NCBI RefSeq assembly: GCF_045037415.1
Contig: NZ_CP173440.1
DNA from: Escherichia coli
Lineage (GTDB): Bacteria; Pseudomonadota; Gammaproteobacteria; Enterobacterales; Enterobacteriaceae
Length of the DNA stretch: 64,000 nt
Direction: 5' to 3' (one strand)
In this document: piece by piece, positions 21,001 through 24,000 of the stretch
Position numbering within the stretch: position 1 is the stretch's first letter
Layout: each line of letters opens with the position of its first letter
Made by a program: the position numbers

Positions 21001-24000
21001 ACCCCAAAGGGATAAATACAAGAAAAGGGGTAGGTAAATGGCTCGGTGAAAAATCCGCCATGTTGCTGTCAAATGTCGTTGTAAACAATGCTATTCATAT
21101 TTTCGGATATGACCCTCAAAATCCTACAGAATCAACCAGAGAAATGGATTTTAATGCACTTGTTGATTTGTTAATTAACACGGGCTATACGCCGGAATAC
21201 TACCCGCTCAAGGTCAACAGGATTGTCGAAGTTCTCAACGGGATGTCGGAAGCTGACTATAAAGACTATTGCCTGGTATGTAAAAAGCCCTTCATACATG
21301 CGCCGGACAGGTATGATTCCTGCCCGACATGTAGCGCAAAAAAATGCAAAGTTGCTATTATGCGTTATTCTCAGTCCTTAGTTCCCTTTGAATAAAAGTA
21401 ATTAAGATTACATGGAAAATCAGCTTTTACACACGGCAAGCACCATCTGCCATATCGCGTTTGCATCGAAGGGAATAACGACACCGTCAGATGAGCAGGG
21501 GTTTTTTGATCTTTCCGACAGCATCCATAATCGCCTGCGTGCGATTTCTCCTGACCTTCATGTCCGTTGTGCCTCTTATTTATTCCTGCCTGTCATTCAT
21601 ACAGAGTTAAAAACTGCCGACCTTAAAAACCATTTTCCTGCTTATATCCTGCAACTTGTTCAGGAACTTGCACCGTTAAAAAGGACTACCTGTCCATCCG
21701 GAAAAATCAGGTTTGATAAAGAGCTGGAAGCCATGTTTTCAGCCAGTCCAGATGCTGTCAGCATTCGTCTGGCCGAATATCTTTCGGGCCCATCCCGTTT
21801 TCTCCGGATGATAAAAAACCCTGACCGTAAGGCGAGAGTTGAGAAAATACTCACTGCCAGAAAATGTAATCTTTCGCATCAGCTGTCACTCCTGATGCAG
21901 GCAGAAGAAACCGTGTCCAGATTTAAATCGCCGGGTAATACCTGGCGTCCCTGAACGGGGTCATGTTATATCTTCCTCATTATCTTTTACTTTCTGGTGT
22001 TGACCTTTTTAACCAACTTAAGGTCAACGTGTTCGTGTGTCAGGAATCTATCCTCCCGTTTATTGTTTAACATTCCGTAAATTCACAGGCTTAATCATTC
22101 AGCGTATAACCGTGGTGGTTTTACTGAATAGTCATGTTACAGGTAAACCCGTCACCTGGAGTTACTCATTTCTGGCTTTCCCGATGATTCATGATCCGGC
22201 GACATTGAATCCCAACCCCCCTCAAGAAAAAATCCAGATTTCGTACAGAACATCTTCCTTATAGAAGAAAACGGATTTTTTTTTATGGGATGATAATGCT
22301 AACCATCGAGGGGTAGCATATGCAGAACACCAAAACTTTTATCCTGAAAGCCGCCATTAGTTCGTTGCTGGTGCTTTCCACTATGAGCCTGGCGGATACG
22401 CAGAAAGTTGAGAACACACCTTTTGTTTCGGGACAATCCCTGAAAAAAGGTTTCTTCTGGTATAACGATAAAGAACCGGTAAAAGATGAAGAAGAACAAC
22501 CACAACAGCCATTAACGGGGTCGCCGTCTCAGGACAAAAAAGAAGAGCTTAAGCTCGATTCACGCTGGCTAAAAGAAAATCTGCTGAATCTTCGTTATGC
22601 GGCAATGGATAACCCGACCAACGAAAACCTGTCCCGCTATTATACTGCGCAACGTTTAATGCTGGATATTGCCACCCGTTTCTCTGACCGGACCCGCGAC
22701 TATTTCCTTAATAACCCGATGATGTCAGAAAAACGACGACAGCCAACCGAAACTGTCGCGTTAAATGCACACCGTGCAGGACTTGAGGAAAATCAGCAAA
22801 AAGCACTTACCTCCATCTTTCAGAAAGGTGGATTGTTTTTCTTTTTCCAGAGTACCTGTGCGTACTGTCACGAGCAAAGCCAGATACTGAATTTCATGCA
22901 GAACTATTATCACATTGACATTATGCCGGTGAGTATAGACGGGCGACCTCTTCACAATGGTTTATTTCCCCGTTATGGACGGGCAACGATGGAGATGATC
23001 AAGCAATACGCCATCACAGAAGTTCCCACTATTTATCTCATGTCCAATGATGGTTCTCAGGCTACAAGAGTCAGTACCGGTCTGGTGTCCGCTGACGAAC
23101 TGAAAAATACGATTATTCTTGCGGCCAGAGGTATGAACCTTCTCGACGAAGCGACATTCCAGAACACGCTCGATATTAAGAAACAATATGCCATTGGCGA
23201 CAGAGATGTTCTGACCGTGAACAAAGAGCGCTATGAACAGGATCCTTATCTGCTTCAGCACATAATGGATGAAAAACTTAGCGGGTACGACATGCCAACA
23301 ACCGATCGGGTTAATACCGGTATTTCAGAAAATGAAGGGGGCTTAAGTGGCTACTGATTTTCCAAAAGTAACTTTCATGAAAAAGTTACTTTTATCGGCC
23401 ATGTTCTTTGGTGTGTTCTCCATGCAGCAAGTCCATGCTGCCAACGTCATGGAGGGCATATTTAAAGGTATGGTGGCTTCAACAGATCCCGCTTCCGTAA
23501 GAACGGCATCACGTGTCGGAGCTGTTGGGGGGAGTTTCTCATACCGCCAGCCTCAGGTGAATACCAACCTCGTCAATGTCAGTTTCCCGAAAGCCAGCGT
23601 CGGGTGTAACGGCATCGATATTTTCCTCGGCAGTTTCAGCATGATCAATGGTGATCAGCTTGTGCAGATTGGACGCGGTATTGCGCAGGGGTCAGCGGTA
23701 TATGCTTTTAACACGGCAGTATCGGCAATCTGTGCCGATTGCGCAGCGATCATTGCCAACATTCAGGACAAGCTCGCAGCACTGAACAAATTTGCCAAAG
23801 ACAGCTGTAACGCAACCTATGAGTTTTTGCAAAACGGGCTGGGTACACCTCAGGAGTTTACTGAGAAAATAGGGCTCGGCGGCGGCGCTGTTGACTCCAT
23901 GGTATCAGGTATATTCCCGGATTTTGGTAGCACCATGAGTCAGCCTGCCAGTGAAGTCAACAAAAAGAACTATGCAAAAGATCCTGATGCCTTTAAAGAG

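Follow-up and report, generated by a model that had tools for sequence, protein, structure and literature searches.

A dispersed 13-bp palindrome of IncHI plasmids, paired at the start of traH, is a candidate site for a plasmid-wide DNA-binding dimer

We analysed a 64,000-nucleotide stretch of Escherichia coli contig NZ_CP173440.1 (assembly GCF_045037415.1), referred to here as the window, and concentrated on a palindrome that lies where the transfer genes traF and traH meet. This palindrome, AAAAGTAACTTTCATGAAAAAGTTACTTTT, was found by inspection at positions 23364-23393, near the 5' end of traH, and consists of two adjacent copies of a 13-bp palindrome, AAAAGT-N-ACTTTT, which recurs throughout the backbone of IncHI plasmids. 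It is most likely one instance of a plasmid-wide system and not an RNA device specific to traH, and we consider it probable that the two copies form a tandem pair of double-stranded DNA sites for a symmetric dimer acting over the whole plasmid, in the manner of KorB at its OB operators or BisD at bisS.

A rare palindrome built from a frequent motif

A repeat search placed the arms of the palindrome at 23364-23375 and 23382-23393, 12 nt each and 100% complementary, around the 6-nt spacer CATGAA. An earlier note on this DNA had reported a near-perfect palindrome of roughly 30 bp at 23365-23392 with the spacer CATGA; the palindrome is real, one base wider on each side, and its spacer is the longer one given here. 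A scan for perfect inverted repeats (arms of 12 nt or more, loops of up to 8 nt) gave two hits in the 64 kb, one here and one at 63957-63987, and of 20 first-order Markov shuffles of the window 18 gave none, one gave one and one gave two. The repeat at 63957-63987, CGAAGGCACCCGACAAATGCGGGTGCCTTCG, is GC-rich and terminator-like in appearance.

The repeated unit is the 13-mer, each arm of the traH palindrome corresponding to one copy. Two such sites placed 17 bp apart, centre to centre, form a larger palindrome because their central bases (A and T) are complementary. The element had been described earlier as a doublet of a dispersed motif, and this was borne out: the 12-mer AAAGTTACTTTT, allowing at most one mismatch, has 32 matches in the window (both strands counted) against 0.44 expected, an enrichment of about 70-fold over chance, and no shuffle reached this number. 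The accompanying statement that the two copies lie in inverted orientation has no meaning, as each copy is itself palindromic. Counted as 13-mers with at most one mismatch, the window holds 19 distinct sites, nine of them perfect, all located between 2.9 and 36.1 kb, with none in the half that is rich in insertion sequences and metabolic genes.

A profile pooled from 99 sites in four sequences restricts the information content to the 13 positions, the outermost being the most degenerate. In the GT-N-AC core the four named bases never vary, and the central base is free, being A or T in 80% of the sites; neither flank adds information, and no -10 or -35 element stands at any fixed distance from these 99 sites. 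Intragenic copies stay nearly symmetric when oriented by the direction of the gene, and their preferred reading frames give K-V-T-F or K-K-L-L-L. Copies of the KKLL type lie at the signal-peptide N-termini of trhH, trhU, trbC/trhW and a thermonuclease gene, and further copies are found at +5 to +16 in htdO and traE.

The motif covers the IncHI backbone

In R27 (173 kb assembled) 49 sites with at most one mismatch are spread over the whole backbone, Tn10, the tcu/cit module and the surroundings of parAB being free of the motif. pNDM-MAR has 59 sites in its first 200 kb, 52 in the first 150 kb and seven in the next 50 kb, and none of them lies in its resistance and transposon regions. The pNDM-MAR sites cluster on the 3' side of repHI1B and between an operon encoding a ParB-like protein and the pilin gene trhA, and in both plasmids the clusters adjoin the ParB-like gene and repHI1B. 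An IncC relative has zero copies. The spacing of the sites, calculated by hand from their coordinates, is weakly even in the window, where the largest gap is 3.7 kb, and not even in R27.

Almost half of the R27 sites (49%) are intergenic, compared with 21% of random positions and 41% of AT-matched 13-mers. Because the AT-matched 13-mers are already so often intergenic, placement largely follows the tolerance for AT-rich 13-mers, and the distances of the sites to gene starts show no fixed geometry and nothing beyond what AT-rich 13-mers show.

Some copies lie close together. A second, independent doublet with the 17-bp spacing is present in an unrelated intergenic locus of pNDM-MAR (101341/101358), and other close pairs are 41-44 bp (five cases), 64, 78-82 and 101-103 bp apart, near whole helical turns. 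At 38881-38967, R27 carries three identical 43-bp tandem units with conserved flanks, centred on the variant AAAAGGCACTTTT, and upstream of trhA in pNDM-MAR (75050-75211; 3409-3570 in our extract L012) there are four bare 13-mers spaced 41-44-64 bp. The motif array of R27, with its period of about 43 bp, extends over 38881-38979; the arrays of both plasmids lie between trhA and repHI1B or the ParB-like operon.

Literature searches with the strings AAAGTTACTTT and AAAGTAACTTT and with degenerate forms returned no description of the motif, older subscription-journal papers on R27 and R478 being outside the search, and the R27 regulation paper mentions no such motif.

Conservation of the 13-mer at the traF-traH junction

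Relatives that are 82-93% identical to the window carry 17-20 copies per 40 kb, and R27 and an IncHI2-like plasmid carry 11 copies per 24 kb. The sites stay at homologous positions while their flanks diverge to about 70% identity or less; the conserved positions include the divergent stretch in front of mobI, the DNA upstream of trhR/trhY and the traF-traH junction itself.

We aligned the junction in seven sequences, namely the window, plasmids at 93%, 91%, 89% and 82% identity, the IncHI2-like plasmid and R27. Among the seven, no invariant block is longer than the right-hand copy (AAAAAGTTACTTTT), and the codons AAA AAG TTA CTT TT are unchanged across lineages that are about 70% identical in nucleotides, with variation in the neighbouring codons. 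The left-hand copy, and hence the hairpin that the two copies can form in RNA, is confined to the pNDM-MAR/IncHI5 clade, whose TraH has three additional codons; R27, IncHI2 and a distant IncHI-like contig (L018), with a TrhR of 27% identity, lack the left arm. In this contig the core AAAGTNACTTT is matched just three times, where 0.08 matches would be expected. Each match sits at a conserved position, one at the 3' end of traD, one upstream of trhR and one at the 5' end of traH, where the right copy persists with one mismatch.

The earlier note had tied its proposal to conservation of the junction and of the doublet. The junction sequence is indeed kept in related elements, and of the doublet the right copy is present in all seven sequences and the left copy only in the one clade. 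Judged from these alignments, the conserved unit is the 13-mer and not the hairpin. Because a single copy is kept in all lineages and the left copy in one clade, the 13-mer at the start of traH is ancient, and the doublet with its hairpin arose later.

The alignment also identifies the start of traH. The GTG at 23347 aligns with the ATG of trhH in R27 and IncHI2, AAGGGGG or TAGGAGG precedes the aligned starts, and the NCBI Prokaryotic Genome Annotation Pipeline (PGAP) places the TraH start of identical plasmids at the same GTG, which overlaps the traF stop codon TGA (23355-23357). The N-terminus through the doublet reads V A T D F P K V T F M K K L L L. It had been proposed that traH begins with MKKLLL, at the ATG at 23377, and that the palindrome covers its ribosome-binding site and first codons; in close relatives this ATG, which falls in the loop of the palindrome, is replaced by CTC, CTG or ATA, and the doublet occupies codons 6-16 (+18 to +47), 3' of the ribosome-binding site and start codon.

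A symmetric dimer as the probable ligand

We infer a symmetric dimer that binds double-stranded DNA because the motif is compact, symmetric, hugely over-represented, confined to the backbone and positionally conserved, with no fixed promoter geometry, and because the same 17-bp doublet recurs and close pairs approach whole helical turns. Such a dimer would have two-fold symmetry and recognise AAAAGT-N-ACTTTT, spread every 2-4 kb over the IncHI backbone. The traH doublet would sit in codons able to accommodate the motif (PKVTF and KKLLL), and the RNA hairpin would be a geometric by-product of adjacent palindromic sites. As operators or loading points, the sites would serve a global regulator that is encoded on the plasmid and belongs to the KorB, BisD or VirB type, a role suggested by their clustering near the ParB-like gene and by the precedents of KorB, BisD and a palindrome of IncC plasmids. 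This regulator may bind or load at the dispersed sites and modulate transcription of backbone and transfer genes at a distance, and the traH doublet, midway along the traF-traH-traG operon, could be occupied especially often and serve as an entry point or a roadblock.

The OB operator of the IncP-1 plasmid RK2 is likewise a 13-bp palindrome with a variable central base (core TTTAGCGGCTAAA), it occurs in many dispersed copies, some at promoters and some remote, and its ligand is a plasmid-encoded ParB-family protein; IncHI plasmids encode putative ParB-like proteins. RK2 carries 12 OB sites, whereas the IncHI motif differs in sequence, has 5-6 times more copies (about 50-70), often lies inside genes just after the start codon, and is accompanied by a ParB-like gene that is an orphan, with no known KorA-like partner. 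In line with operators of the KorB/ParB type, which are palindromes of 13-16 bp with dispersed copies including promoter-remote ones, we counted 19, 49 and 59 copies in the window, R27 and pNDM-MAR, about half of them intragenic. KorB has been described as a ParB-family CTPase and global regulator that acts at long range by sliding.

A similar likeness holds for bisS of ICEclc, an integrative and conjugative element (ICE) of Pseudomonas. This site is an intragenic palindrome with n at its centre, and its ligand BisD has been reported to be a ParB-like clamp that loads at bisS, spreads over the element and works with the FlhC-like BisC; IncHI plasmids encode both TrhY, which has the FlhC fold, and orphan ParB-like proteins. 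In contrast to the IncHI motif, bisS is 23 bp long, has two copies only and belongs to another element family, and BisD fuses ParB and activator parts, whereas TrhR is not ParB-like.

The IncC plasmid pTC2 (L013) has a palindrome of its own, the 16-bp CTTTCACATGTGAAAG, dispersed over a related MOBH/MPF_F backbone. Six perfect copies occur in 40 kb (3443, 3902, 9225, 12561, 24033 and 27449), against 0.04 expected. Unlike the IncHI motif it is parS-like in sequence, far less frequent and intergenic in all six cases, with one copy about 50 nt upstream of a parA / KorB-domain gene. We read it as a KorB-like dispersed operator system parallel to the IncHI motif.

The 43-bp units of R27 and the 41-44-64-bp array of pNDM-MAR resemble sopC of plasmid F, in which 43-bp repeats each contain an inverted repeat bound by SopB, the period of sopC being 43 bp. 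The IncHI arrays differ in having only 3-4 units, most copies are solitary, and the partition system Par1 has separate tandem arrays. Other repeat classes were considered and rejected. Iterons of a Rep_3 replicon do not fit, as only R27 has 43-bp units with shared flanks, whereas all other copies, those beside rep in pNDM-MAR included, share the 13-mer alone and are scattered over the plasmid; repetitive extragenic palindromic (REP) sequences, bacterial interspersed mosaic elements (BIMEs) and miniature inverted-repeat transposable elements (MITEs) do not fit a 13-bp unit that is about half intragenic and has unconserved flanks.

Candidate binding proteins

The leading candidate for the binder would be an orphan ParB-like protein of the R0042 family, TrhR/TrhY being weaker candidates. 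Such proteins are encoded at 45191-46348 (R0042) and 40890-41966 in R27 and at 71462-72640 in pNDM-MAR, they score 22.6, 22.2 and 20.1 bits with the Pfam HTH_ParB profile (cut-off 22.6), and the candidate gene has no adjacent parA. A VRxGxxRxxA box is invariant among them; overall identity between the lineages is 33% and 28%, and the recognition helix is poorly conserved (four proteins compared). In the published R27 arrays R0042 gives a signal among the highest and is reported to be induced under all conditions that promote conjugation.

The master activator of IncHI transfer, TrhR/TrhY, belongs to the FlhD/FlhC class, like SetCD, AcaCD and BisC, and four cysteines are conserved in the TrhY homologue of the window. 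A word-indexed search for TrhR homologues returned close relatives only, and an exhaustive search indicated that the family is genuinely tiny. One metagenome contig in ENA encodes a 360-residue protein (P0007) in which the N-terminus and middle of TrhR are joined to full-length TrhY through an internal deletion; this is either a natural fusion/deletion variant or an assembly artefact.

HtdA showed no recognisable DNA-binding domain. HtdK, which is encoded in the htdA operon of R27 (16077-16640 in L009) and takes part in transfer repression, matches the Pfam family Whirly with 24.6 bits (cut-off 23). Whirly is a family of single-stranded-DNA-binding transcription factors. 

Two further candidates were discarded. 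The ParA/ParB pair of Par1 has upstream regions that contain their own 52-bp or 66-bp tandem arrays and no motif. A Tus-like binder was considered since the motif shares GTAACT with the Ter core; it was set aside because the identity of the protein between lineages is only 23% and because some 50 non-polar sites resembling Ter would be expected to stop replication. The arrays upstream of parA lie in 2.4-3.1 kb of non-coding DNA, with 21.6 copies of a 52-bp unit in R27 (25600-26750 and 27540-27850) and 21 copies of a 66-bp unit in pNDM-MAR (65025-66415). They are probably the Par1 centromere, and they lack the 13-mer.

Mutation of htdA in R27 has been reported to derepress 139 of 181 expressed genes, the HtdA-independent genes being transposon genes, parAB, cit, tet and mucAB. 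These HtdA-independent modules are free of the motif, save mucAB, where one copy stands 54 nt downstream of the mucB stop codon. This correlation is confounded by the distinction between backbone and accessory DNA.

The published R27 arrays give fold changes between 25 °C and 37 °C along the operons. In the F operon these are 6.45 for trhF, 1.58 for trhH and -1.56 for trhG, and in the AN operon 2.97 for trhP, 3.79 for trhW, 1.32 for trhU and -2.06 for trhN. In both operons the shift coincides with a gene that bears the motif at its 5' end, a coincidence that is only suggestive because a gradual decay is also seen along the AC operon. Separate gating of traH and traG from traF, as proposed in the earlier note, is possible; the drop from trhF to trhH and trhG does not single out the motif, as a similar decay is seen along other tra operons.

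Points against a plasmid-encoded regulator

Several observations weigh against the proposed plasmid-wide dimer. The motif is identical in R27 and pNDM-MAR, whereas the ParB-like recognition helix is poorly conserved between them (28-33% identity over the whole proteins), and a homologue of the ParB-like protein exists in IncC, which lacks the motif. A highly conserved plasmid DNA-binding protein that might stand behind an invariant site was looked for; every plasmid-encoded candidate is at most 65% identical between R27 and pNDM-MAR, which leaves room for a host factor. The sites are placed no better than AT-rich 13-mers in general and could therefore serve a non-transcriptional function. In addition, several copies lie just after start codons or beside Shine-Dalgarno sequences, as a model based on RNA structure would also predict.

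A more specific form of the proposed mechanism is possible, if doubtful. The motif could be a parS-like loading site of the orphan ParB-family CTPase (the R0042 family of R27), with TrhR/TrhY as its partner in the way that BisC is the partner of BisD. From some 50-70 loading sites the clamp would slide along the IncHI backbone and switch transfer and backbone genes on or off plasmid-wide, through counter-silencing or silencing, with the traH doublet among the strongest entry points. If this were true, many of these 50-70 loading sites would be written into the first codons of transfer genes.

Alternative explanations

The 13-mer might instead be the box at which TrhR/TrhY activates transcription, antagonised by HtdA, with the doublet making or regulating an internal or antisense promoter at the traF/traH border. 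We regard this as unlikely. The parallel would be with the SetCD and AcaCD boxes of SXT/R391 ICEs and IncA/C plasmids, which share the same backbone (MobI, MOBH relaxase, traF-traH-traG) and an FlhC/FlhD-class activator, and whose boxes are dispersed before transfer operons. Those boxes are, however, longer and strand-oriented, and lie at a fixed place just upstream of or overlapping the -35 element, as in class II activation, whereas the IncHI motif is palindromic and has no orientation, no information in its flanks and no fixed distance. SXT has a box upstream of traF; in IncHI plasmids no copy with at most two mismatches precedes traF/trhF (region trhY-traF) in five of six lineages, L003 has two degenerate two-mismatch matches without the GT-N-AC core, and hence no copy that retains this core lies between trhY and traF in any of the six. 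This is the more telling as the F-operon promoter is the standard TrhRY/HtdA-responsive reporter in published work. Conversely, the R operon has two sites upstream and yet is reported not to be HtdA-regulated. No sigma-70-like promoter was predicted at the junction or doublet, and transcription initiated some 40 bp downstream of it would begin inside traH.

It is also improbable that the palindrome acts as an RNA hairpin (12-bp stem, 6-nt loop) in the traF-traH mRNA, controlling traH translation or mRNA stability. The structured RNA suggested by the earlier note is thermodynamically real, with a predicted stem of -10.4 kcal/mol (z = -5.9 against shuffles) that persists in a 96-nt context. It begins 17 nt past the start codon, close to where the ribosome footprint ends, several further copies of the motif fall in the first 10 codons or adjoin a Shine-Dalgarno sequence, and trhF differs from trhH and trhG in the temperature response recorded by the R27 arrays. 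Set against this, z is only -1.96 in the 96-nt context, the left arm is missing in IncHI1, IncHI2 and the distant L018, and a single 13-mer, which would leave a loop of 1 nt, cannot fold. Where both arms are present they do not vary, so that no covariation is available, and the motif is symmetric under reverse complementation and occurs in convergent intergenic regions as well. A hairpin that sequesters the ribosome-binding site or start was rejected, as the Shine-Dalgarno sequence and the real start codon GTG are outside the stem (23364-23393) and the structure is unconserved. A terminator or attenuator was rejected too: two of the 12 stem pairs are G-C and no intrinsic terminator was predicted in 23150-23600. 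Rfam 15 gave no relevant match in 22800-23900, the sole one being a sub-threshold mir-187 at 23046-23137.

A site for a host protein, nucleoid-associated or of another enterobacterial kind, or a purely structural A4/T4 bending element, looks quite improbable to us. The arrangement A4...T4 is a known bending pattern, although a structural element would not need the invariant GT-N-AC core, and to our knowledge the motif matches no consensus of an enterobacterial regulator. IncHI transfer is reported to depend on host H-NS and Hha, and an invariant host partner would explain why the motif is identical in lineages whose regulators are 23-65% identical; the co-resident IncC backbone, however, shares these hosts and lacks the motif.

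Finally, that the doublet is a coding by-product, a signal-peptide KKLLL with a chance palindrome, fits the right copy at the signal-peptide N-terminus and the KKLL termini of trhU, trbC and the thermonuclease gene, and is so improbable as to be effectively refuted by the roughly 70-fold enrichment and by conservation at synonymous sites, the exact codons being invariant while their neighbours change and the motif being equally frequent in non-coding DNA.

Gene context and coordinates

Many Klebsiella pneumoniae megaplasmids of 280-420 kb, typed IncHI1B/IncFIB (pNDM-MAR type) with a MOBH relaxase and MPF_F, match the region at 100% identity. The gene order is mobI-mobH-traD on the minus strand, three small genes, and traF-traH-traG on the plus strand; two of the three small genes are homologues of the R27 activators TrhR (31% identity) and TrhY (35%). 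A single-base indel relative to NZ_CP072809.1, which is otherwise 100% identical, lies at about 30669, inside or beside a hypothetical gene annotated at about 30361-30972. The coordinates of the features are collected in Table 1.

Table 1. Genes and copies of the 13-bp motif in the window
Feature	Position	Strand	Remarks
traF	22320..23357	+	Pfam TraF, E = 5e-52; annotation of identical plasmids
traH	23347..24756	+	Pfam TraH, E = 4e-56; annotation; alignment
traH Shine-Dalgarno AAGGGGG (23335-23341) and start codon GTG (23347-23349)	23335..23349	+	Alignment; PGAP
TrhR homologue, one subunit of the IncHI master activator	19923..20678	+	
TrhY homologue, FlhC fold, Cys4 zinc ribbon	20871..21395	+	
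Composite palindrome	23364..23393		12-nt arms, 6-nt spacer, site centres 17 bp apart
Left copy, AAAAGTAACTTTC, 1 mismatch	23364..23376		Encodes P-K-V-T-F, traH codons 6-10
Right copy, AAAAGTTACTTTT, perfect	23381..23393		Encodes K-K-L-L-L, traH codons 12-16
Two perfect copies	19439-19451 and 19541-19553		Divergent mobI / trhR region; positions kept in relatives L003-L008
Perfect copy	20785..20797		74 nt upstream of the trhY homologue
Two perfect intragenic copies	12057-12069 and 12385-12397		Gene upstream of a DUF4400 gene
Three copies (starts 29226, 29411, 29436)	29226..29448		Divergent intergenic region
Perfect copy	34719 (start)		Inside a helicase gene
Perfect copy	35406 (start)		Convergent intergenic region
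Perfect copy	36045-36057		Abuts the Shine-Dalgarno of a lytic transglycosylase gene (AAAAGTTACTTTTgaggagctggttaATG, minus strand)
Further single copies, at most 1 mismatch, 13 nt each	Starts 2918, 6428, 8602, 15748, 25631, 31646		

The copy beside the lytic transglycosylase gene lies in a divergent region shared with a thioredoxin-fold gene, and its position is kept in all relatives. The copies at 29226-29238 and 31646-31658 share extended flanks (ctgcacagg[t/c]ccgGAAAGTTACTTTTtt), and each stands upstream of a small hypothetical gene on the minus strand (28731-29018 and 31109-31390), which suggests a duplicated module of gene plus site.

Significance

Dispersed palindromic operators are known from other large plasmids; what is unusual here is the copy number, the embedding in early codons and the strict conservation in spite of diverged regulators. 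In Klebsiella, Salmonella and E. coli the plasmids concerned, IncHI1, IncHI2, IncHI5 and the pNDM-MAR-type megaplasmids, are carriers of NDM, mcr, tmexCD and virulence genes. A circuit of TrhR/TrhY, HtdA and H-NS/Hha governs the transfer of these plasmids, and the papers searchable here give no DNA target for it. A 13-bp palindrome with about 50-70 copies, conserved in all these lineages, on the backbone only and within the codons of transfer genes is a candidate for this missing DNA element, and it could explain why mutation of htdA derepresses most R27 genes. The motif also provides a simple sequence signature of IncHI backbone DNA and a handle for experiments.

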